64,000 nt of DNA from a virus. Lineage: Duplodnaviria > Caudoviricetes. The notes beneath the pieces are model-generated. The model had not been told where the DNA came from. It saw only the letters and a program-made list of their open reading frames with translations, and made no database searches. The stretch is taken from IMG/VR virus record IMGVR_UViG_3300019874_000002, positions 54,720-118,719 of that record; one strand, given 5' to 3'. A program made the position numbers and the translations under genes. The number at the start of each line of letters is the position of its first letter. Within the stretch, counting starts at the first letter, position 1. Of the stretch, positions 22,607-63,838 are shown piece after piece.

Positions 22607-24010
22607 CTAGTCGTCAAGAACATTGATGAAGATCACATTCTTCCGAGGCGCGTACAGGATCGGCGTCATGTAGATCAGCTGCATCCAGCGAATTGACGCC
22701 GCAAGCGTCGCCAGCGGAATCTTCATCATTGGCGCCAGCTGCCTCACGCTCATTGACTGCAAATTCATTTGCAGCAAATACGCGCGCGACATTCCAGGCA
22801 GCCACTGATTGACATCAAGAAACACTGTCGTCGCCGCGCCAGTCGGACGTGGAACATCGAGCACAAATTGCTCGGTTCCAGCCGCGCCACCGACTTTGCT
22901 GCGATAGATGCGATACCCTGTCGCAGTATCCGTACCACCGCCATCAGTAATCGTGAGCGTCACGCCATCGCCTGCAGCGACAGCAACACCACCAGGCTCT
23001 TGCACACCAGCGCTCTCGCCAAAGCGATTGAGTGCAGACACCTTGTATTGATACGTACCAGCATCGGCCGCACCAAAGATTGAAGCAGCGTTTGCACCGC
23101 TCGCAGCGGAACACGTCGGCGCCGTTGGAGCGCGCACGGACGTTGCAGCAGTCGGCGCATTCTTGACGCTGTTCTCTTTGCCACTGCGCAGAAAGATGTT
23201 TCCGCGAAGCGCGATATCCCCAGCGTTCGTTTCCATCAGCTTCGCGCTGTAGCCAATTCTACCATCCGTTTGGCCAAAGCTTCCGCGCTGACGAGAATAG
23301 AACTGCTTGCTCATATCGCTTTGTGCGCGCGGAGCAAGATACAGCGCCGAAGATATCCCGTAGTTTTCGACGACAACGTTGGTCGCCTCTTCGATTGCGT
23401 CCTCCGTGATTGGCCCACCGCGAAGATCAATCACGTTGTTTGCACTTGCAAACGGATCTCGCATGAGCTGCTCGTCAATGCCGTCGAACGAATCTGGAAT
23501 GACGCTCGCTTGACCTCTGAATAGCGCGCGCTCAATGCGCATCATCAGCCAGATCGCGCGATTCTGCGTCTCTCGCGCAATGATATTGCCGTACGCATTG
23601 CGCACCAACGTCGCCGGATGCGTTACCTCGCCTTGCGTGCCGAGGAATTTGATCATTTCCACGCGCCGCTCGTACGCCGCGTCCTGAACCTGAGGCAATT
23701 CACCTTCCTTCGTGAATGCGCCAGACTCACCGCCGTAGCTCGATTGGATCGTGTACTCCTCACTCGTCGAGAACGCAGGCAGCTTCGGAATGTCCTTCCA
23801 AAGCTTCATATGCCCTTGCGAGAAAGTGAGCACGCGGAGCGTCGCCTCGAGTGATTCCACGCGAAGCGCACTACCGCCGTCATGGCGCGGACTCTGATTG
23901 CCTGCTGAGAGAGCTTTGCGGAGATCGTCCGCACTCATGCCTGCATTTGGGAGCAAACCGAAACCGGTAAGCCCATCGTAGTCAGACATGCCAACGTAAT
24001 TGCCTTCCAT
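22607..24010 (-). CDS. Major capsid protein
   Basis: KALSAG...GGSALRVESLEATL..LT, LWKDIPK.PA.ST.EEY, IERALFRG, FDG, IDLRG, PMMKIPLA; SPO1/Twort-like MCP pattern with an Ig-like insertion. Confidence 0.93.
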   Translation of the reverse strand: MEGNYVGMSDYDGLTGFGLLPNAGMSADDLRKALSAGNQSPRHDGGSALRVESLEATLRVLTFSQGHMKLWKDIPKLPAFSTSEEYTIQSSYGGESGAFTKEGELPQVQDAAYERRVEMIKFLGTQGEVTHPATLVRNAYGNIIARETQNRAIWLMMRIERALFRGQASVIPDSFDGIDEQLMRDPFASANNVIDLRGGPITEDAIEEATNVVVENYGISSALYLAPRAQSDMSKQFYSRQRGSFGQTDGRIGYSAKLMETNAGDIALRGNIFLRSGKENSVKNAPTAATSVRAPTAPTCSAASGANAASIFGAADAGTYQYKVSALNRFGESAGVQEPGGVAVAAGDGVTLTITDGGGTDTATGYRIYRSKVGGAAGTEQFVLDVPRPTGAATTVFLDVNQWLPGMSRAYLLQMNLQSMSVRQLAPMMKIPLATLAASIRWMQLIYMTPILYAPRKNVIFINVLDD

Positions 24011-25515: not shown

Positions 25516-25854
25516 TTAGTTAGTAACCAACACGGTCCAGCGCACAGTGCATGGATTTGTTGCAACTGCGTAAACGCCAGCTGCGCCAGACTCCTTCGAC
25601 GCATTGATTGTAAAGGTGTTGTTTGCGTTTTGAACCGACGCTAGACGATGAACTGTCGCCACACCTCCAGCGTCTTCAAAATTCAATGACTGAACAACAT
25701 ATGACATGATGTCGACACGTCCACCTTTCATCCGAATAGCACGTCCAAGGTCGACGACTGTCGACCCTGTAAACGTGATCAATCCAGTAAGATGACTTGA
25801 TTGATTTCTCTGTTCGCCGACTCGCGGCTTTCCTGTCGCTACTCGTTTAGCCAT
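25516..25854 (-). CDS. Putative structural protein
   Basis: 112 aa, beta-rich, TAATG-coupled to protease gene. Confidence 0.45.
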   Translation of the reverse strand: MAKRVATGKPRVGEQRNQSSHLTGLITFTGSTVVDLGRAIRMKGGRVDIMSYVVQSLNFEDAGGVATVHRLASVQNANNTFTINASKESGAAGVYAVATNPCTVRWTVLVTN

Positions 25855-26603
25855 TAAATCCTCCGTTCCTGTTTTTCAATTACACGCGCGAGTCGCTCGC
25901 AGGTTGCCCACGCATATTGTGGTCGATGCGACTTAATCACTTTGACTGCTTCATCGAATGATAGCTCCATCCGTCTACGCTCCACACGACCGCTCGCTAG
26001 AGCTGCACCTCCACTATGCGCTGGCGATTGACCTCCAGCAGACAGAGCTTTTCTAATATTACTCGCTTCCATTTGCTCGTAAGAACCAAATGACTTCGCG
26101 AGAATACTCCAAGAACATTTAGTGTTCACCGGAACACGCGTAATCGCAACGTCGCGAATCTTTGCCTTTAGTATTTTGTTATCGTATCCTCGATCGACAA
26201 CCTTACCTTCAATACTAAAACCGAGATGTCTAGCAACGCCACTCTTTAGCAGTGATTTAGCAAGCGTCCAAATGCGATCAGCAGGCTCGTAGTCAACAAG
26301 CAAATTACCCTCCGTCCACCAGGACCCCTTCCGTAATTCTGCCATCGACGGCACACCCACAGCATCCGCAGTCCCTTGCTTGTGGTTATCGTTAAACCAA
26401 CCGTAGTTCACGAATTCTGTGAAATCCAACCCCTTTGCTAAAACACGCTCGTCCTGCCGGTCCAAATCTTCCGTGGAACACGTTCCACCGATTGGGCGTG
26501 TTCGCTCTATATCTACTGCGCCTTTGGACAAATCAATTACAACACAGCCTGGTGTCCAAATGATAAAATCGTCTTTACCATCTAAGATATCGTTGTCTTT
26601 CAT
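25854..26603 (-). CDS. Prohead protease
   Basis: STEDLDRQDE, GWFNDNH (His), LGFSIEG (Ser), VAIT..PVN motifs. Confidence 0.87.
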   Translation of the reverse strand: MKDNDILDGKDDFIIWTPGCVVIDLSKGAVDIERTRPIGGTCSTEDLDRQDERVLAKGLDFTEFVNYGWFNDNHKQGTADAVGVPSMAELRKGSWWTEGNLLVDYEPADRIWTLAKSLLKSGVARHLGFSIEGKVVDRGYDNKILKAKIRDVAITRVPVNTKCSWSILAKSFGSYEQMEASNIRKALSAGGQSPAHSGGAALASGRVERRRMELSFDEAVKVIKSHRPQYAWATCERLARVIEKQERRI

Positions 26604-31800: not shown

Positions 31801-33265
31801 CCTGCCCAGTATTGTAATCAGTGAACGCTTTGAGAGTCGCTTCTGACGTCTTTTGCAATTTACGTTTCAACGTTGACCGTGCGGCGCTGTCATTGCTGAC
31901 GATACCGAGCTTTTGCGCAATCAAATCAAACACACCATCTATCGTCGCATCGGTGTGATCACCTGGAGCGTAATCGTAAGTGTTGTCAGAAGAGAACGAA
32001 TTCTGTGCGTCCGTCGCCGTATACACGGCCATCAATTGCGACGCATTCAAACGCTCAAGCTGATTATCTTTCCACAGAGACCCTAGATCACGCTTACGAG
32101 TCAGAAGCAAACCAGACTCTGGGATAATCGCGCCACGCATCCTGCGCTGCGCCACACCACCCTTAGAACCTCTTTTGATTAACCCCATTTGATGCATCGC
32201 CACAGTCATCCGCACAGCTAGATCATTTGGGTCGTCGCCCAACATCATATCGGAAGCAAGCGGCGAAAATTCATCGGCCATCTGCTCTGCTTTAATGTAG
32301 AACGCATTACGATGAATCTCTAATTTCTCTGCGGACGCTGTTGCAGCGGCTTGAACCTTTGGATCCTCGTGGAGTGCTTTCCTATAGCGCCCCATCAATC
32401 CACGAATAACCTCTAGAATGTCTTCTGGAGATTCGACATCTCCATATTGAGGGTCACCCACAAAGAGGTCGGCATTCGTTCTAAAAAACTCCTCCGTCGC
32501 CTCTTCAAATCCAATATTGCGACCTCCAATCTTCACAGAGATATTATGCAAACCTCCAGCCTTCTCCACGTCATTTCTCGTAATCCCAAACGAGCTTAAA
32601 ACGTTGTCATAATTATCATGCCACCATTCCATGAAATTATGGTCAGCTTCGCTCAACGCATCGCTATGCAATAACGCGTCGTGTAGATCAAGCTGGTCAT
32701 GCGCTGCAAATGGCTGAGGCATGTAATACTGTCGAAAATGCTCTACAACATTATCTGGTGTCGCTTGCTTTGTGAAACTACCGTGTGGTCGCTCTCCATA
32801 CCGGACATTGCCTTTATCATCCCTCCAAAACTTACCGCCACGCGAACCAGCGCGCTCCACATGAACGTAACCGCTCGGTGTAAGTTTTCGCTCCACAGGC
32901 GCGGAGCTAGACATCTTGTGTTTACCTGTTGCAGCTTGCTCGCTCGGATTGCCTCCGTACCGTCCACCAATTGGCGAATTGGACATTTTCGGCAGCTTTG
33001 GCTCTGCTTTGAAAAGCAAACGTCCGTCGCTTGTGACGACAAACGATCCGGCCGCAGACTTTTCGATACCGTCTTCTTCGAGCACAGCCATTACGTCTGC
33101 TTCTAAAGCAGACATCCGAGCACGATACAGCGCGTTCAAATCATCAGATAAAGTTTGCGTGACAGCGTGACGCATTGGCCGCATTGGAATACGCAACGTA
33201 GCTTTGATGAGCAAATCGTCTCCGATTTGCAAACCCTCAAGTAATGCGTCATCGTCAATCGACAT
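28874..33265 (-). CDS. SNF2-family (SF2) helicase/translocase, head-cluster protein
   Basis: DAGMGKS (I), FIDEAH (II), MTATP (III), GGAGLNLQ (V), PWNP...QAIGRQWRTGQ (VI). Confidence 0.9.
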   Translation of the reverse strand: MSIDDDALLEGLQIGDDLLIKATLRIPMRPMRHAVTQTLSDDLNALYRARMSALEADVMAVLEEDGIEKSAAGSFVVTSDGRLLFKAEPKLPKMSNSPIGGRYGGNPSEQAATGKHKMSSSAPVERKLTPSGYVHVERAGSRGGKFWRDDKGNVRYGERPHGSFTKQATPDNVVEHFRQYYMPQPFAAHDQLDLHDALLHSDALSEADHNFMEWWHDNYDNVLSSFGITRNDVEKAGGLHNISVKIGGRNIGFEEATEEFFRTNADLFVGDPQYGDVESPEDILEVIRGLMGRYRKALHEDPKVQAAATASAEKLEIHRNAFYIKAEQMADEFSPLASDMMLGDDPNDLAVRMTVAMHQMGLIKRGSKGGVAQRRMRGAIIPESGLLLTRKRDLGSLWKDNQLERLNASQLMAVYTATDAQNSFSSDNTYDYAPGDHTDATIDGVFDLIAQKLGIVSNDSAARSTLKRKLQKTSEATLKAFTDYNTGQDPHFADVFKMKMNDVAGKSDIMDDHLVNVAKEQARIVKILAAQEDDSFDVPLTMKDGIWNGKTLKDPNDPSKGVWEPFGYQKKYINWMMAVKRGVIAQDAGMGKSPTVIAFMEQLRAQGKDIPAVMFLPPSLMEQWPGVIAKFAPESADKILNLSGFSLEERKVALQSDLAKKARYIFISSGTLTGDVPDPNASEDENDGTGGSDHEMVKILQNLEGAVFIDEAHSGGYKKAGNTRHEIAKAVMQDREYAFGMTATPMPNDPMDLYHLANLFAPDSVGDQELWSGRMAGVAWNEDDQAYRVSNPEHLADLNKRLKPFVFYKSITDPDVVADMGKGLTKRVGVSESKEQWPDEGDLALSKVVSSENGLSQNDYFKEDGVIDTMVKLRIERLIKERRAKIEAREINPSTGERYEEHNEGALALMAGGMQMMLQRQASISPALIDASYRKSDGGIAHTPKLKAFCDDVIAHFSNSGQGGKAAKGIVAFCSFPQKAFPIIRKALAERGIDPSLIDTIAGDVAPSERGYIQDKYNKGHSKVLLTGTVSGGAGLNLQEGGNKTLFIDEPWNPAQKRQAIGRQWRTGQTEDVHEKTYRSVGTYDMMVEQKIAGKQAMVGALLGKELPTSATFDVEGSVHDLMRRVQGATFSEAQIKTIMENAKSYDLASPGQKEAEETVGSVGLSKHAKKIEALGEDWKESAAAGGRGGLSAQLTDKDFEPSKEGKANLKKRGAHALTKNFDEKEFRGQWELDRNKRNSKQKFQMANLMEQVYRDKGDNDKADHYAKQAEGLQKEYPELASEKPKTGSKKEAKGKVKAVAEQPKAAEKPKQATATVGTAERTVEKKTAQKQQKDSEDWNASPIPKGSEPSKVTSKKPNLGLEFHSSDNPFKEGSTRKVKGSEISQGEAHHFFERLTKTRSGDWNEFIKKELKPIWDDEDGRNPFSNDKAEEYMQKVVGALQSQGLMTQSMVAFGEKKKEGKS

Positions 33266-40383: not shown

Positions 40384-42435
40384 TTAATTCAAATCAATCT
40401 CAAAAAAGTCCATATCAATTGATTTCTTGACACTGCCCAATTGATCATGGTGTGCAGACACAATATTTTTCGCACCTGACAGTCCGTCCGCTTCACCGAG
40501 CTTTTGGAACGTTTGACCTCCCCCAGGTTTATAGCTCACAGATGCACGATTAACGACCTTATCGTGACTGATCGAGTACATCCCATGAGTCGCAATACCT
40601 GCGTGATAATCAGTTGCAGGTGACTTCATCGTTCGTTTGAAACTGACAGTACCGTGAAATGGTTTGGGGCCAGAACCAGAACCGCCTTTATACAAATCGT
40701 TATCTCTCACAGATGAATGCACGCTGGACTCCCAATCGTTTTGCTTCAGGAAACGAATGTTGTCGTCCTCTTCGTGAGATTCGTCTTGAGGTTTTGAACC
40801 TCGCGCCATTGCACCAAGCTTTTTACCAGCATCTTTCGCCGTCGGAGATGGCCCGTCTCCAGCATTGCCAAAACGGTTTGCGTACGGTTGCTCTGGAGGC
40901 TGTTCCTCGTCACCACCTTCATCACCACCAGGAGCGCCCATTCCAGGCGGCATTCCGCCAGCACCTCCGCCTTGCTGTTCTGCCATTTCCTTCTGCATGA
41001 GATACTGAAGGTAAACAGGATTGGCGATCACATCACCATGCTTCACTGGACCGACATCATCCAATGCGCGCAGCTCATTGATAGTGACGTGCGTTTGACC
41101 TTGCTTCTGGCGCAGCTCTGCAGCTTGTTCCTCACTCTTCGCATCGAGACCTACGAGCACAAACTCAAAATCCTCATCGATACGGTCAACGATGTTCCGA
41201 TTGATGAAGGTTTCAAAGAAGCGAAGGAGAGGCTTTAATCCTCTGTCCTTTGAAAGCTTCTGCTGAGCTTCGTTATTGCCCATGAACACTGGTTGCTGAC
41301 CACCAGCGCTCCCACGCAAATCAAAGTTAATCTCGCTTGGATCCATCTGATACAGCGCACAAGCCACCTTCACCAGGTACTCCACCCACATCTGGTAACC
41401 CATCTCCGTATTGGACATCTGCATCTGCTGGAATTCGACACCGTCCGAATTAATGATCGGTGTCCTCCAGGCATTGGTAATACCTCCAACCTGAGCCATC
41501 CATTGGCGCTTGAACGCGTCGTATTTCTCCTTCGAGATATTACCTTTCAGATTCAGGATGCCTTTAATCGTGCTTCCCTGCGAGAACGCTTTCTTATTCC
41601 ATTCCTGCGCCCAAATATGCGCCGTCACAATTTGAATCAAAATCTGCGGCTCTGGAAAGCCGTACCCTCCGACCTTTAGATTAGACCTTGGATTGCGTAT
41701 CCCGAAGGAAAGGGTTCTCGGCGTGAAATCGCGCAAAATCTCGCCATTAATCATCTGCACGTACATCACATGCGATTTCTCTTGAGAGCGCGCAATCGGA
41801 TGGCCCTTCGGATTCGTCTTCGTTTGATCTGCAATCCTAACCGTAGACGGATCCATTACAAGCGTTTCATGAAGCTTGCCACCACGATTATAGACGTTCT
41901 CCATGTTGACTTGGTCATACGTCAATGAATCGCGCGTCATCATCTTCATTGCATCAATCAATGGAGCGCGTGTAATATTCTTCTCAGCGCCCATATGTTG
42001 AACGTAGTAACCAACCTTCTTCGAACGGTCACGTTCGCCGTTGTCCATCCTACGATTGCGCTTGTCCTTGTCTTTGAAGCGCACCATATTGCCAACGCTG
42101 TACTTATTCTCTTGCTCCTGGCAAAACGTACTCATCTGATTATTACGTGTTGTCACGATTGAGCCAAGCAGCGTGTCTTGCTCTGTCATTTGACGAAGCG
42201 TCTCGTATGTAATCCTCGCTGGATTGGACCTGTAGCCCATTCCAATAGAATCAATCAGTGAAAAAGGATCGGCGTAGAACCCTTGCGGTTTCGCTTCTTG
42301 CGGCGGAGGTGTCGCCAGATCGTGCAAGGATTTTGCAATCTTCTGAAACAGCTCTCCAGTAGCTTCGTGAATTGCGTGCTTGACCTGAGGCTGTAATCCA
42401 GCTTCGATCTCTGCAATTGGCGTCTGCTCCACCAT
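40384..42435 (-). CDS. Portal protein with C-terminal extension
   Basis: TYETLRQM, RDSLTYDQ, DPSTVR, RNPRS...GYG..E, FSQG...KGIL, NAWRTPI, DPSEINF, SKDRGLKPLL, TINELR. Confidence 0.92.
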   Translation of the reverse strand: MVEQTPIAEIEAGLQPQVKHAIHEATGELFQKIAKSLHDLATPPPQEAKPQGFYADPFSLIDSIGMGYRSNPARITYETLRQMTEQDTLLGSIVTTRNNQMSTFCQEQENKYSVGNMVRFKDKDKRNRRMDNGERDRSKKVGYYVQHMGAEKNITRAPLIDAMKMMTRDSLTYDQVNMENVYNRGGKLHETLVMDPSTVRIADQTKTNPKGHPIARSQEKSHVMYVQMINGEILRDFTPRTLSFGIRNPRSNLKVGGYGFPEPQILIQIVTAHIWAQEWNKKAFSQGSTIKGILNLKGNISKEKYDAFKRQWMAQVGGITNAWRTPIINSDGVEFQQMQMSNTEMGYQMWVEYLVKVACALYQMDPSEINFDLRGSAGGQQPVFMGNNEAQQKLSKDRGLKPLLRFFETFINRNIVDRIDEDFEFVLVGLDAKSEEQAAELRQKQGQTHVTINELRALDDVGPVKHGDVIANPVYLQYLMQKEMAEQQGGGAGGMPPGMGAPGGDEGGDEEQPPEQPYANRFGNAGDGPSPTAKDAGKKLGAMARGSKPQDESHEEDDNIRFLKQNDWESSVHSSVRDNDLYKGGSGSGPKPFHGTVSFKRTMKSPATDYHAGIATHGMYSISHDKVVNRASVSYKPGGGQTFQKLGEADGLSGAKNIVSAHHDQLGSVKKSIDMDFFEIDLN

Positions 42436-42441
42436 TTGTTT

Positions 42442-43569
42442 TCACCCAATGCGACTGACGTTTGGTGCTGATTTACTCAAGTCATAGTACGGCGCTTTAT
42501 CAATTGGATGCTCGTCAGGATTCGCTCTGATGTCTTTCACCTTTGCACGCAATGTCTGAGCTGCAGCATGATTGCCTTCCTTCTCCGCATCACCAGCAAC
42601 AGCTTCCATCGCACCAACGCCGCGAGCATGTGCTTCGTGCTCGGCTGCAGCGTGTGAGTGATTTTGAGACATATTGCGATGATTCAAATGCTCGCTGTAA
42701 TGATTTACGTCAGGTGCGTAGTTACCAGTCCTTCGCTCTTGCGCCGCTGCAGCGTAATGCTTTGCTGATTCGCCTGCATGGTGCGTCGCCTTCTCCCTGT
42801 GGTACGCTGCAATGTCAATATTCTTTTCTGGCGTCAAATGGTGCCCAAGCTCTGTTTCAATCGGCGCCCAGTGCTCACCTGCAAACTTATGGTGAATTGA
42901 ATCAGACGCAGGACCCTCTTTAATCTCCGGTCCATACGATCCAAAACGAACGTGGTGTGTGTTCTTGATTTCGTGTCCACCAGACGTTTTGTCAACTGTC
43001 TTTTTTTCTCGTGCGCCTTCCTTCTTTATACGCGAACGCTCTTTGCTCTCTGCAGCCTTTGCCGCTTTGGCTTCGCGTTCCTCTGAAGGAGTTTGCTTGC
43101 CTTCACCCTTTGCTTTATGAGCTGCAGCAATATGATGGTGGAAGGCTCTGACCTTATCGCTATTGCTGTAGTTCAAAGCTTCTTTACCGTGGTGCTGCGC
43201 AGCGTCTGAGTGCTCCTCGGTTGTATAATCCTTCGCTGCACGACGGACATGACTCGCTGCATGTTCTGCCAGCTTTCCTTCGGCAGTCTTCTTCTGCAAA
43301 TTGACATGGCCTCTCATGTACTCTGTTGCCGATTCAGACGGAGCGTAAACAGCTTTTCCGCTCTTGGTGTGTCCAATCACCTTCCCTCCTCGAGACCCCT
43401 CACCATCTGCTTTAATCAGTAGCGACTTGACCACAGGAATTTTGGTTGTTTTCGCTGTCGATGCTGGCGTAGGATTGACTGTAGTTTTTCTGTTTGGCGT
43501 ATCAGGAAGAATCGGCGCCGCTCCTTGGCGAGTCGCTTTCGATTCACTTGATTCAGGCTTTGGCGTCAT
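42442..43569 (-). CDS. His/Ala-rich internal head protein (probably the -1 frameshift extension of the upstream gene)
   Basis: LLIKADGEGSRGGKVIGHTKSGKAVY; no clear RBS at 43569; frame open upstream to about 43710. Confidence 0.6.
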   Translation of the reverse strand: MTPKPESSESKATRQGAAPILPDTPNRKTTVNPTPASTAKTTKIPVVKSLLIKADGEGSRGGKVIGHTKSGKAVYAPSESATEYMRGHVNLQKKTAEGKLAEHAASHVRRAAKDYTTEEHSDAAQHHGKEALNYSNSDKVRAFHHHIAAAHKAKGEGKQTPSEEREAKAAKAAESKERSRIKKEGAREKKTVDKTSGGHEIKNTHHVRFGSYGPEIKEGPASDSIHHKFAGEHWAPIETELGHHLTPEKNIDIAAYHREKATHHAGESAKHYAAAAQERRTGNYAPDVNHYSEHLNHRNMSQNHSHAAAEHEAHARGVGAMEAVAGDAEKEGNHAAAQTLRAKVKDIRANPDEHPIDKAPYYDLSKSAPNVSRIG

Positions 43570-43616
43570 TACTTCGCGAATCGATTCGCGCGGAATACGT
43601 TGCGTAACACTGTGTT

Positions 43617-43659
43617 CGCCAGTAATCGCCTTTTGGACTACTGGCGTTTCACAAAAGGG
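43617..43659 (-). promoter_or_regulatory. -1 programmed ribosomal frameshift signal
   Basis: In-frame C CCT TTT (43659-43653), 6-nt spacer, 11-bp stem CGCCAGTAGTC/GATTACTGGCG. Confidence 0.7.
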
Positions 43660-44408
43660 AGCAATGCCTTTACCACAGGCTTCATCGAATTTGCCATCGG
43701 CGGCTTGGCGTTAATCGGAGCCAATTGACCTTTAGGTGTCGGCGAAGGTTCCACGACTGGAGGTGCTTTTTGACCACCTTTTCCATACACCCAATCTGGC
43801 TTTGTGCCTTTCTCGATTCCTGCAGCTTCATACGCATCCTCTCCAACATGCATTCCGCCAGCCTTTAGGAAATCAAGCACGTCCTCGAGATCGTATTTGC
43901 GCTGCTTGCGTGGAGCGAAATGCATATCGCGAAGCGATTTGGCGACCCTATACGCGAGCGGCAACGGCTTGCCATCTCGCATCCGATCTGCCATCTCTTG
44001 CCCACAGTGCCTGGAGACTTCTCCTTGCGATTGCCATCGGAATTCGGACTTCACCATATCGCGCGTAATATCGCCTGCGATACGCTGAGCAATCGTCATA
44101 TCCTCATCGCCCAACGTGACGCGCTTCATTTGAATCATCGGCTCCATCGAGCCATACTCGTTCATCGTGCCAGGACTTCCGTTAACGCAAGGCGTAGCCA
44201 AATCGTCAATCTCGTCAGGCCCAAGCTCTGCAAGAGGTGCATAACCATACTTACGGTCAATACCGCTACCGCACAAAGCTGGCGCAGTACCAACCTCACA
44301 GGCTCCACCCTTTGCGGCGGCATTACCATCGTAATGAACGCAGCCTTCACATTTGCTGTTTGGAGTGACTGGTGTGCGTTGAATACGCAACTCTTGCAGA
44401 TCCATCAT
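43638..44408 (-). CDS. Head-cluster protein with N-terminal Cys cluster
   Basis: ATG 44408 overlaps upstream TAA; C..C.HY...C......C; MVKS, VAKS, IEKG, VVKA sites. Confidence 0.6.
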   Translation of the reverse strand: MMDLQELRIQRTPVTPNSKCEGCVHYDGNAAAKGGACEVGTAPALCGSGIDRKYGYAPLAELGPDEIDDLATPCVNGSPGTMNEYGSMEPMIQMKRVTLGDEDMTIAQRIAGDITRDMVKSEFRWQSQGEVSRHCGQEMADRMRDGKPLPLAYRVAKSLRDMHFAPRKQRKYDLEDVLDFLKAGGMHVGEDAYEAAGIEKGTKPDWVYGKGGQKAPPVVEPSPTPKGQLAPINAKPPMANSMKPVVKALLPFVKRQ

Positions 44409-44596
44409 TACTGAGGTCCTTCCTGCAGCGTACAGCTGAAATTGATACACGACCAATCATGTGTTGGGCATGTGCTAGCGTCACTCGGTCCACAGACATC
44501 GGACTCAGTTAACAAACGTCCACCATTAACAAAGCCAAACTTCTCAGTCGTGAGACTGCGAATAGTTTGCTTATTGAGATGTAGTGCTTTCTTCAC
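44408..44596 (-). CDS. Lanthipeptide-type RiPP precursor 1
   Basis: MKKALHLNKQTIRSL...VNGG then core with 4 Cys and many Ser/Thr; coupled to both neighbours. Confidence 0.75.
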   Translation of the reverse strand: MKKALHLNKQTIRSLTTEKFGFVNGGRLLTESDVCGPSDASTCPTHDWSCINFSCTLQEGPQ

Positions 44597-45030
44597 GTTG
44601 CTTCCCCTATGATTGCAACCTGCACGCGCGCAGGTGTTGTTGAGCTAGGATTTGAAAAGAATAATGCAGTGAGCGGAGCGATCACTGTCATCGGTCCCAT
44701 GAACACAATACCAGGCTGGGGATTCTTCTGGTACGGCAGAATTGGATCCGGTGTCGTCGCAGGATTTGGTTTCAAGCCAAGCGGCGATGATGTATTCAAA
44801 TTCACACGATAAGTAATCTCGCCTGACCAAACAATAATCAGCAAATATTTACCAGCTGCAACCTTCGGAAACACAACAGCTTGATTCGCAACACTCTGCG
44901 CAACAGTAACGATACCTCCATCCCACGTCGTTACTAGCGTGTCATCGATGATTTGGTTAAGATCCAAATCTCTGATCAACTGATCACTATCTTCTGACAA
45001 CAACGGTTTCAGTGTAACCATGAAACGCAT
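44593..45030 (-). CDS. Hypothetical, probable structural protein
   Basis: 145 aa, beta-rich, coupled to both neighbours. Confidence 0.5.
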   Translation of the reverse strand: MRFMVTLKPLLSEDSDQLIRDLDLNQIIDDTLVTTWDGGIVTVAQSVANQAVVFPKVAAGKYLLIIVWSGEITYRVNLNTSSPLGLKPNPATTPDPILPYQKNPQPGIVFMGPMTVIAPLTALFFSNPSSTTPARVQVAIIGEAT

Positions 45031-45239
45031 CAGGTATCGCCCTCACTCGCTAATATAGGGAGCTTTGGGAGCTTTGGGATATCCCTCCAAAACTTCGTCA
45101 CACCTCTACCAAACGTGAATGCGCTGATCATCTCCTTCATAGCTTCCATATCAATAAGAAACTTGTCAGGCAGAACTATAATCGGAGCACCGATAGCCTC
45201 ACCAAAACGACGACGTTTCCACAACGACGTCAAAGTCAC
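45030..45239 (-). CDS. WKRR-tagged small protein containing a major-capsid-like segment
   Basis: GGAGG RBS; TFGRGVTKFWRDIPKLP versus MCP TFSQGHMKLWKDIPKLP. Confidence 0.7.
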   Translation of the reverse strand: MTLTSLWKRRRFGEAIGAPIIVLPDKFLIDMEAMKEMISAFTFGRGVTKFWRDIPKLPKLPILASEGDT

Positions 45240-45439
45240 CTCAGACCTCCATTTTTCAAATCGGTATCCTCCAACCCATAAGCTTTTCTAATCATCCCAC
45301 TCTCTCCGGTAGCACGCATTGAACCACCACAATGACATTTGGTCCCCACCGTTGTCATCGTCGACGCGCCGCACGCGCCACAAGTGCAATCACGAATGGC
45401 TGATGATCGGTGGGGGGAACTGATCCGTGAGTTTGGCAT
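45236..45439 (-). CDS. Small zinc-ribbon protein
   Basis: CGACG...CHCGG; start at MPNSR assumed. Confidence 0.45.
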   Translation of the reverse strand: MPNSRISSPHRSSAIRDCTCGACGASTMTTVGTKCHCGGSMRATGESGMIRKAYGLEDTDLKNGGLR

Positions 45440-45716
45440 TTTCTGCAGCCTTTCTTTTACGGTCTTCGTTTTTCGTTTGCTCGACTTCTTCAGAATGCTT
45501 TTCAGCTGCGATCCTATCAAGCTCTTTCTGAGATTTCATCCCAGCAATTTGCATAAGAGTCATCGCTTGCTCTTTGCGATGTTCATTCAAAAGCGCAATC
45601 TCTTCACGTTCGTATGCTCTCTGAGCGTCGACAGCTTTCAACTCATTTAATTGAGCGTCCGCGACGAGCGAATAGAAATCGTCTGCGATCTCGTCATCGT
45701 CAAATTCTCCGCTCAT
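45390..45716 (-). CDS. Hypothetical helical protein
   Basis: 108 aa, coupled to upstream gene. Confidence 0.5.
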   Translation of the reverse strand: MSGEFDDDEIADDFYSLVADAQLNELKAVDAQRAYEREEIALLNEHRKEQAMTLMQIAGMKSQKELDRIAAEKHSEEVEQTKNEDRKRKAAENAKLTDQFPPPIISHS

Positions 45717-46003
45717 CCTACTTCAATCGCCTTAGCTTCAGAGATTGCCTTTTTGATAATGCTCACCAATTTCTCAGCATCTTCAATGCTCAACGCTGAT
45801 TCAACATGAACGTGTGTCGTCCCACAATGCAAATGAACGCACACTGCGCTAGCTTTCCCATTTTCAGACACAGACAAAATTCCGCCGTGCGCATGCCAAC
45901 CTTTTACAACAAGAGGGCTATCATACTTTCCCTGCGATAACGCGTTCTTGTTCCACGCGTTCCGCTCATTCACAAATTCAGTAGCTACTTCTGTGTTCGA
46001 CAT
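45713..46003 (-). CDS. Hypothetical protein
   Basis: 96 aa, AGGAG RBS. Confidence 0.5.
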   Translation of the reverse strand: MSNTEVATEFVNERNAWNKNALSQGKYDSPLVVKGWHAHGGILSVSENGKASAVCVHLHCGTTHVHVESALSIEDAEKLVSIIKKAISEAKAIEVG

Positions 46004-57045: not shown

Positions 57046-57420
57046 ATGGGCACTGCTTCTATTTGGAAACGACGACAAGCCGAGCGACCACGCCAGAATT
57101 TAGACCCAATTGCTCAACTAAAATCAGACGGATGTCTCCCGGTAGTGAGCGCTGAAATCCATGTGGCACCGACGCCCAAAAATCCAACATTAATATCTAT
57201 GAAATCGTCGTATCATCCACCAATTGCACTTTGCAAATTACCGATACCTATTTTATTGACAGCAGTCCTCACATTCCAAAGAGATTTTGATATTTTATCG
57301 CCACCGCTAACCGGAATAATAACAGTCACTTGGTATAAACAAAGCATCCGATGTTTACATTGTTGGGAGATCGTAAAACTCGATCCAAAATGGAGTGGGA
57401 GATTTCTCTTTGAGGATTAA
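57046..57420 (+). CDS. WKRR-tagged H-C-CxxC protein
   Basis: Internal ATG of track ORF 56851: MGTASIWKRR...IHV...ALCK...RCLHC. Confidence 0.6.
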   Translation: MGTASIWKRRQAERPRQNLDPIAQLKSDGCLPVVSAEIHVAPTPKNPTLISMKSSYHPPIALCKLPIPILLTAVLTFQRDFDILSPPLTGIITVTWYKQSIRCLHCWEIVKLDPKWSGRFLFED

Positions 57421-63596: not shown

Positions 63597-63838
63597 AGAG
63601 AACATCGTGTCCTTGCTTGCTTGCCGTGATACCTGGATACCCAGATCTTAGGTATCGCGTCGTGTTTTGCAGGCATGCTCTTTTGAAACTGTTCTGCAGT
63701 TGCTTCGCACAATGGCGCTTCCAGAGTAGCTAACCATATGTGCGCTACAGATTGATCTGTGGTTGTGCGTTCTGTAGCTGCACACTGTGCAAGCGATCTA
63801 CGTCTCCACAATGAGGGAAGCGTCATGCTGATGCTCAT
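63524..63838 (-). CDS. WKRR-tagged H-C-CxxC protein
   Basis: (MSIS)MTLPSLWRRR...AHIW...PLCE...RCSLC. Confidence 0.6.
   Translation of the reverse strand: MSISMTLPSLWRRRSLAQCAATERTTTDQSVAHIWLATLEAPLCEATAEQFQKSMPAKHDAIPKIWVSRYHGKQARTRCSLCHAISTRFTIIEVYATLLAHGSP

Follow-up and report, generated by a model that had tools for sequence, protein, structure and literature searches.

How does a piece of a phage's major capsid protein (MCP) come to be encoded a second time, inside a gene of 69 codons with quite another beginning, and is the product of such a gene likely to do anything? The question is raised by an open reading frame at positions 45030..45239 (minus strand) of the window, that is, the right-hand 64 kb (64,000 nucleotides) of the 118.7-kb genome of an uncultured phage, an IMG/VR record rated 100% complete by CheckV. 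A sequence-only reading of the window had described this frame (hereafter the ORF) as encoding a small protein with a diverged MCP copy. Here we review where the ORF lies, where its two halves come from and what its product might do in the infected cell.

The ORF and its operon

The ORF starts with GTG, which shares bases with the TGA of the upstream gene (GTGA), and its own stop codon, TGA, shares bases with the ATG of the downstream gene (TGATG). The upstream neighbor (45236..45520, minus strand) encodes a Zn-ribbon protein of 94 amino acids ending in ...LKNGGLR and is kept in relatives of the phage. The downstream neighbor (44593..45030, minus strand) encodes a conserved protein of 145 amino acids with no assigned function, and its gene lies directly after the Zn-ribbon gene in relatives. 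A Shine-Dalgarno-like GGAGG (45246..45250, minus strand) is present 6 nt 5′ of the GTG, where the sequence-only reading had placed a ribosome-binding site for a protein starting with an MTLTSLWKRR tag, and both of these elements are indeed there. At the homologous position of the relative G001 the sequence is GGCGG, which serves the start of a 144-aa gene. In the present phage, a separate GAGG precedes the ATG of the 145-aa gene by about 9 nt.

These genes are part of an overlapping run on the minus strand, in the order ParB-like, 96 aa, 108 aa, 94-aa Zn ribbon, ORF, 145 aa, 272 aa, 375 aa and portal, a tight operon that places the ORF upstream of the portal gene (40384-42435). Its codon-usage log-likelihood of 0.234 per codon corresponds to the 78th percentile of real 69-codon windows of the genome, and the other five frames are worse. 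With its GGAGG, its start and stop overlaps with both neighbors and its genome-typical codon use, the ORF looks like a translated gene. No Rfam match was found in the ORF region, and promoter and terminator scans of this region gave site numbers not above chance expectation.

Descent of the C-terminal half from the major capsid protein

The MCP of this phage, a protein of 467 amino acids with the HK97 fold of the SPO1/phi812 type, is encoded at 22607..24010 (minus strand). It was identified by matches to PHROG 752 (4.8e-82), Pfam SU10_MCP and SPO1 gp6.1 (PDB 9vel, 1.7e-73), and it also matches the MCP of phi812 (5lii, 9row) at about 3e-23. Residues 29-58 of the ORF (45066..45155, minus strand) are a diverged copy of MCP residues 49-78 (23777..23866, minus strand), in which an amphipathic helix region (ORF residues 29-48) is followed by a KFWRDIPKLP block (residues 49-58). 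ORF residues 32-58 align with MCP residues 52-78 without a gap and with 12 of 27 residues identical, precisely as had been reported along with the coordinates of the frame.

Several statistics agree that this likeness is real. BLASTP between the ORF and the MCP gives an E value of 8e-8. The Smith-Waterman score of the pair is 74, the runner-up among 1092 stop-to-stop frames of at least 50 amino acids in the genome being 42, and in the comparison with shuffled sequences that the sequence-only reading had proposed, none of 5000 shuffles reached 74 against the MCP (maximum 53). A Gumbel fit to the genome-wide maxima of 200 shuffles gives p = 9e-6, which survives correction for the hundred or so ORFs that were open to a reader's comparison. 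When the ORF is aligned by hhalign with a profile of 39 MCP sequences (alignment A1), the match (90.9% probability, E 1.2e-6) widens to MCP residues 49-81 and ORF residues 29-61 over 33 profile columns. A degenerate DNA pattern for DIPKLP occurs at only two places in the window, in the ORF and in the MCP gene, with 0 expected, and five of the six DIPKLP codons differ between the two at the third base only, a count that had been given correctly. The ORF segment derives from an MCP, and the similarity is beyond chance.

The resemblance to the family stops at this piece. The motif of the N-arm helix and hinge of PHROG 752 / PF17236 (VESLE..L..LTF......W..IPKLP) is present in the ORF, and it is the only part homologous to HK97-fold MCPs of the SPO1/phi812 type (PHROG 752, PF17236, PDB 9vel, 5lii). 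The ORF has no P domain, A domain or E-loop, and measures 69 amino acids against about 400 or more in a full MCP. Since the P and A domains are missing, it is not a member of the MCP family and, judging from this domain content, cannot form capsomers. It matches no Pfam or PHROG family, and its residues 1-31 resemble neither the N-terminus of the MCP nor the C-terminus of the protease. A third copy of the MCP hinge (LWKDIPKLPA) was considered in a SNF2-like protein of 1463 amino acids, which has LFKAEPKLPK at residues 84-93 (32986-33016, minus strand); this likeness is probably due to chance, because LFKA is kept in the relative G001 and PKLP is not.

The copied segment in the capsid protein

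Solved homologues align to the MCP throughout residues 49-78. The mature chain of the phi812 protein starts at the equivalent of MCP residue ~30, beside the family-invariant K32-A33-L34, which places residues 49-78 within the mature protein. From the topology of the HK97 fold, they would comprise the N-arm helix (LRVESLEATLRVLTF) and a hinge (..KLWKDIPKLP) leading into the first strand of the E-loop. L49, V51, E52, S53, L54, T62, W71 and K76 are invariant in the MCP family, and P75 and P78 are nearly so; judged by these positions, the N-arm helix and hinge are among the most conserved stretches of the MCP. The ORF retains E52, T62, W71, P75, K76 and P78 of the MCP, and at 11 of 12 hydrophobic positions it has a hydrophobic residue or Ala.

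AlphaFold2 predicts helices at residues 3-15, 31-42 and 47-53 of the ORF alone. The second of these falls within the copied helix region, with low confidence, and the model as a whole (pLDDT 48) is too weak for a fold search. A complex prediction with MCP residues 30-467 (with alignment) gave a score of 0.00 with the partner poorly folded, a result that weighs neither for nor against an association.

Is the copy constrained?

The copied segment has not diverged evenly. The KFWRDIPKLP block of the ORF is identical at 10 of 10 positions to the block of MCPs of more distant relatives (P0023, P0030) and at 8 of 10 to KLWKDIPKLP of the phage's own MCP, whereas only 4 of the preceding 20 helix residues are identical, both to P0023-type MCP and to its own, leaving 16 changed. 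The contrast between helix and block corresponds to a Fisher p of 3e-5 against P0023-type MCP and of 0.004 against the own MCP, with a split point chosen after seeing the data. Since the VESLE.TLR helix is nearly invariant in MCPs, the helix changes arose on the ORF's own branch. A helix that has changed much and yet keeps its hydrophobic register, an untouched hinge block, an intact frame and typical codon use together suggest constraint on the peptide.

The third-base differences in DIPKLP had been taken to point to selection on the peptide of the ORF. As proof of this they are weak, because DIPKLP is nearly invariant in MCPs and the changes could have accumulated there, so that this argument alone is insufficient; the hint of constraint comes instead from the fully identical block and the helix register. 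At the end of the motif, a perfect 9-nt tandem duplication, CCAAAGCTC twice (45060..45077, minus strand), can be read directly in the DNA. It gives PKL-PKL and lengthens the copied motif to PKLPKLP. The two repeat copies are without any divergence, which suggests recent in-frame slippage.

The N-terminal tag and a private family of small proteins

The other half of the ORF has a different origin. Residues 1-25 (45165..45239, minus strand), consisting of the MTLTSLWKRR tag and a short hydrophobic strand, APIIVL, are common to about ten small ORFs of this phage (alignment A3), which range from 49 to 124 amino acids and conform to the consensus M-[T/A/P]-[L/F]-x-x-[L/I/V]-W-[K/R/A]-R-[R/Y]. They start at 63826, 62346, 62065 and 45239 (the ORF) on the minus strand of the window, at 57046, 59053 and 60910 on its plus strand, and at 486, 47569 and 47417 on the minus strand in the coordinates of the whole genome (G000). 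A short N-terminal leader is thus shared by otherwise unrelated small proteins of this phage. The Leu codons of the tag vary among the copies (CTT, CTA, CTC, TTG or TTA) and no upstream DNA is common to them, which indicates that conservation of the tag acts on the peptide.

In most of the tagged ORFs, the tag is followed by an x-H-I-x-V strand and then by C...CxxC near the C-terminus (alignment A3). In the ORF studied here the strand is degenerate (APIIVL, with Pro for His), Cys is absent altogether and the H...C...CxxC core is missing; by these marks, it is an incomplete member of the private MTLxxLWKRR family. The ORF is a chimera of a private-family start and a diverged MCP piece.

Neither the relative G001 nor 351 kb of loci from relatives contained the tag family, which is also without a Pfam or PHROG match. 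When IMG/VR was scanned for the tag pattern, the 15 matches were all internal or short out-of-context frames and are ascribed to chance. Fragments of other phage proteins were not detected in the other tagged ORFs (p 0.04-0.99, uncorrected, ten tests). Most of the tagged ORFs are far from the head genes. Their L-W-K is followed by R, and the site of the MCP family is L-x-K/A (the slash marking the cut), within the invariant K32-A33-L34 at the start of the mature phi812 chain.

Distribution and origin of the ORF

The relatives that carry the flanking genes, whose MCPs range in identity to that of this phage from ~82% down to ~57%, number nine (G001; G003, G004, G005; L035, L036, L038/L039, L041; and an 89-kb Logan contig). 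In all nine, the Zn-ribbon gene, ending in ...DLKKGLR or similar, is followed by a gene of 143-147 amino acids with a gap of 0-8 nt or an overlap. The ORF corresponds to about 207 nt of coding DNA placed exactly between the Zn-ribbon and 145-aa genes, and the adjacency of these genes in 9/9 relatives means that it is an insertion private to this lineage. Absence or degradation in relatives had been named beforehand as a sign that the ORF might be a recombination relic; it is absent from all nine, and no degraded form was seen, which indicates recent lineage-specific gain rather than decay. When the records of G001-G005 were searched with the ORF, only their MCP gene matched.

The sequence-only reading had also proposed looking for such MCP fragments in other phages, and no homologue of the ORF came to light in the collections searched. 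A set of 5.8 billion proteins, searched at near and longer lengths, returned only the ORF itself; 1.8 billion representatives returned only two repeat-rich proteins, matched through low-complexity repeats; the phages of GenBank and IMG/VR held no homologue of the ORF; and all scores in the ESM Atlas were below 0.9. Three contigs carrying the ORF encode an identical protein, and the one read as DNA agrees with the window at every base (100%) over 12.2 kb. A DNA pattern for FWRDIPKLP has 11 matches in IMG/VR, all in MCP-sized open frames except one shortened near a contig end.

From which MCP did the segment come? Its DNA is identical to the phage's own MCP gene at 57 of 99 nt and to 11 other FWRDIPKLP-bearing MCP genes at 47-53 of 99 nt, so it is not a recent copy of any sampled gene. 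Recent transfer from the MCP gene of a sampled relative was considered and rejected, as the identity to these genes is lower than that to the own MCP.

Reuse of the MCP N-terminus in the prohead protease

The prohead protease gene (25854-26603) offers another case in the same genome. The C-terminus of the protease, residues 170-209 (25977-26096, minus strand), is a copy of MCP residues 15-53 (tblastn E 5e-6; hhalign 88% probability, E 3e-6). It spans the predicted maturation site (NIRK/ALSAGGQSPAHSGGAAL versus DLRK/ALSAGNQSPRHDGGSAL, cut at the slash) and also holds ALSAG.QSP.H.GG.AL after the cleavage site. The copy may be a self-cleavage or procapsid-targeting module, and its presence means that N-terminal pieces of the MCP have already been reused as modules in this phage.

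Possible roles of the ORF

What, then, might the ORF do? The reading to which we lean, tentatively, is that it is a lineage-specific chimeric mini-gene whose C-terminal half would imitate the MCP N-arm and engage a partner of the N-arm. According to its sequence features, the ORF would be translated by coupling within the operon leading to the portal and head genes. The helix and hinge of the product could then occupy the surface that normally receives the MCP N-arm, on a neighboring capsid subunit or on the scaffold C-terminus, since the hydrophobic face and the invariant W..PK.P hinge residues are kept. The protein would thereby be recruited into procapsids, or would tune procapsid assembly by competition. 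In phage 80alpha, a C-terminal helix-and-hook of the scaffolding protein docks on the N-arm helix of the capsid protein, and CpmB, a protein of the satellite SaPI1, competes at this N-arm site via a short copied motif (PMC5644958). This precedent and the protease's copy of the MCP N-terminus are the grounds on which we favor, with modest confidence, mimicry of the N-arm in procapsid assembly. Like CpmB, the ORF encodes a small protein that includes a short motif copied from a protein of head assembly; its binding at the interface of N-arm and scaffold is so far a proposal. Unlike CpmB, which copies the scaffold C-terminus and is encoded by a satellite, it copies the MCP N-arm, the other side of the interface, and is encoded by the phage itself. 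Such a role would fit a homology that follows the MCP family profile, the uneven divergence, a frame that is open with typical codon use and the gene-like setting; it fits less well with the lack of a homologue in the collections searched, the absence from nine relatives and the low fold confidence (pLDDT 48), and the synonymous differences in the block may come from MCP lineages.

Nearly as likely as N-arm mimicry is that the ORF is a neutral by-product, in which a copy from the MTLxxLWKRR family landed between two genes and picked up a scrap of the MCP by illegitimate recombination; the frame would pass ribosomes on downstream, and its protein would have no role. Absence of the ORF from nine relatives and from every database searched, loss of the Cys/His core of the family, the fresh 9-nt slip duplication and the low fold confidence are all consistent with this, as is the downstream gene's possession of its own GAGG ~9 nt before its ATG. 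However, synonymous and non-synonymous sites alike have changed greatly in the MCP-like part, and the 69-codon frame is nevertheless intact with typical codon use. A random frame of 69 codons would be open only ~4% of the time, as estimated from stop-codon frequency. Nor does a neutral origin readily account for divergence so strongly uneven, with the invariant hinge residues retained. If the activity of the protein instead resided in its N-terminal family module (tag and strand), the MCP-like tail would be a dispensable passenger. Conservation of the tag peptide over ~10 ORFs despite differing codons argues for a function of this module, but the ORF lacks the H...C...CxxC core of the family, and when it is compared with other sequences, conservation is highest in the MCP block rather than in the family module, which makes this explanation quite unlikely.

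The other explanations look to the capsid protein as a target. The copied N-arm-like peptide might bind a host sensor of newly made MCP without activating it and thus shield the late infection. MCPs are known triggers of immunity: CapRel makes direct contact with the MCP, Lit (Lit/EF-Tu) is switched on by the Gol peptide of T4 gp23, and escape mutations from PifA map to the T7 MCP (PMC9712102). The stretch that was copied is of the kind on which a sensor could depend, being one of the best conserved in the MCP. Expression of the ORF would coincide with that of the head genes, and many anti-defence genes are, like the ORF, variable and accessory. Nevertheless we regard a decoy as unlikely: the isolated peptide activates Lit rather than blocking it (PMC9712102), no related decoy family appeared in the searches of other phages, and among the tagged ORFs only this one includes a piece of some other phage protein, so that the genome has no set of decoys. 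The known triggers resemble the ORF in that an HK97-fold MCP, or a short stretch of it, acts outside the capsid, there as an immune trigger; they differ in that the parts of the MCP sensed there by host proteins belong to the MCP itself, whereas the ORF is a separately encoded phage copy. In the literature searched, no separately encoded phage capsid copy is described as acting as a decoy. The remaining candidate, very improbable, is interference with co-infecting relatives, in which a dominant-negative N-arm would poison the assembly of phages whose MCP has FWRDIPKLP, the own MCP having LWKDIPKLP. In its favor, the block of the ORF agrees at every residue with that in P0023, P0030 and other more distant relatives and departs from the own MCP at two positions. 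Against it, both differences are conservative single-nucleotide changes, and LWKDIPKLP is also the form in the closest relatives, which do not have the ORF.

Comparison with other small proteins and implications

In T4, the internal proteins IPI-III, otherwise unrelated small proteins, share a 10-residue N-terminal capsid-targeting sequence, which ends in a prohead-protease site, and their genes lie together. An N-terminal leader common to small proteins of one phage is a feature of the present tag as well. Unlike the T4 leader, it reads L-W-K then R, where the MCP site is L-x-K/A, and most of the tagged ORFs are distant from head genes. The ORF may also be compared with microProteins, a eukaryotic regulatory concept of dominant-negative mini-proteins, for in both a larger protein of the genome has supplied the interaction segment from which a small protein is made; interference by the ORF would be hypothetical. 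No family of phage-encoded capsid-fragment proteins was found described in the literature searched.

The ORF is at present a single orphan, a moderately interesting and well-documented curiosity rather than an established system. It might be a newly arisen instance of a wider phenomenon, the recurrent evolution in phages of very small genes that present a conserved peptide of the phage's capsid protein as a mimic, be it to weaken immunity that senses capsids or to guide the assembly of heads, a generalization that we consider doubtful. Should the protein be produced and attach to a partner of the N-arm, the phage would encode a mimic of its own capsid protein, and the fusion of a family leader to a structural motif of 30 residues would be a clear case of gene birth. 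The protein would then represent a new class of small modulators that act on assembly or against sensors, and would help to find out what portion of an SPO1-type capsid protein is functionally exposed ahead of assembly. A neutral chimera would still illustrate the origin and persistence of mosaic mini-genes in phage operons whose genes are tightly packed, and would warn that synonymous differences within an invariant motif do not prove that a copy has been under selection.

Other variation in the operon

The gene order around the ORF varies at two further points. G001 and the Logan relative L051 lack the 96-aa gene (45713-46003, minus strand) that stands here between the ParB-like and 108-aa genes; in both, a gene of 107-112 amino acids comes straight after the ParB-like gene. 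The 96-aa gene is a second insertion specific to this lineage, and it lies 0.5 kb away from the ORF. Upstream of the portal gene, the 272-aa and 375-aa genes (42442-44456, minus strand) correspond to one open frame of more than 509 amino acids in G001 (L007:1901-3427), and in L051 a 282-aa gene is directly followed by the portal gene.
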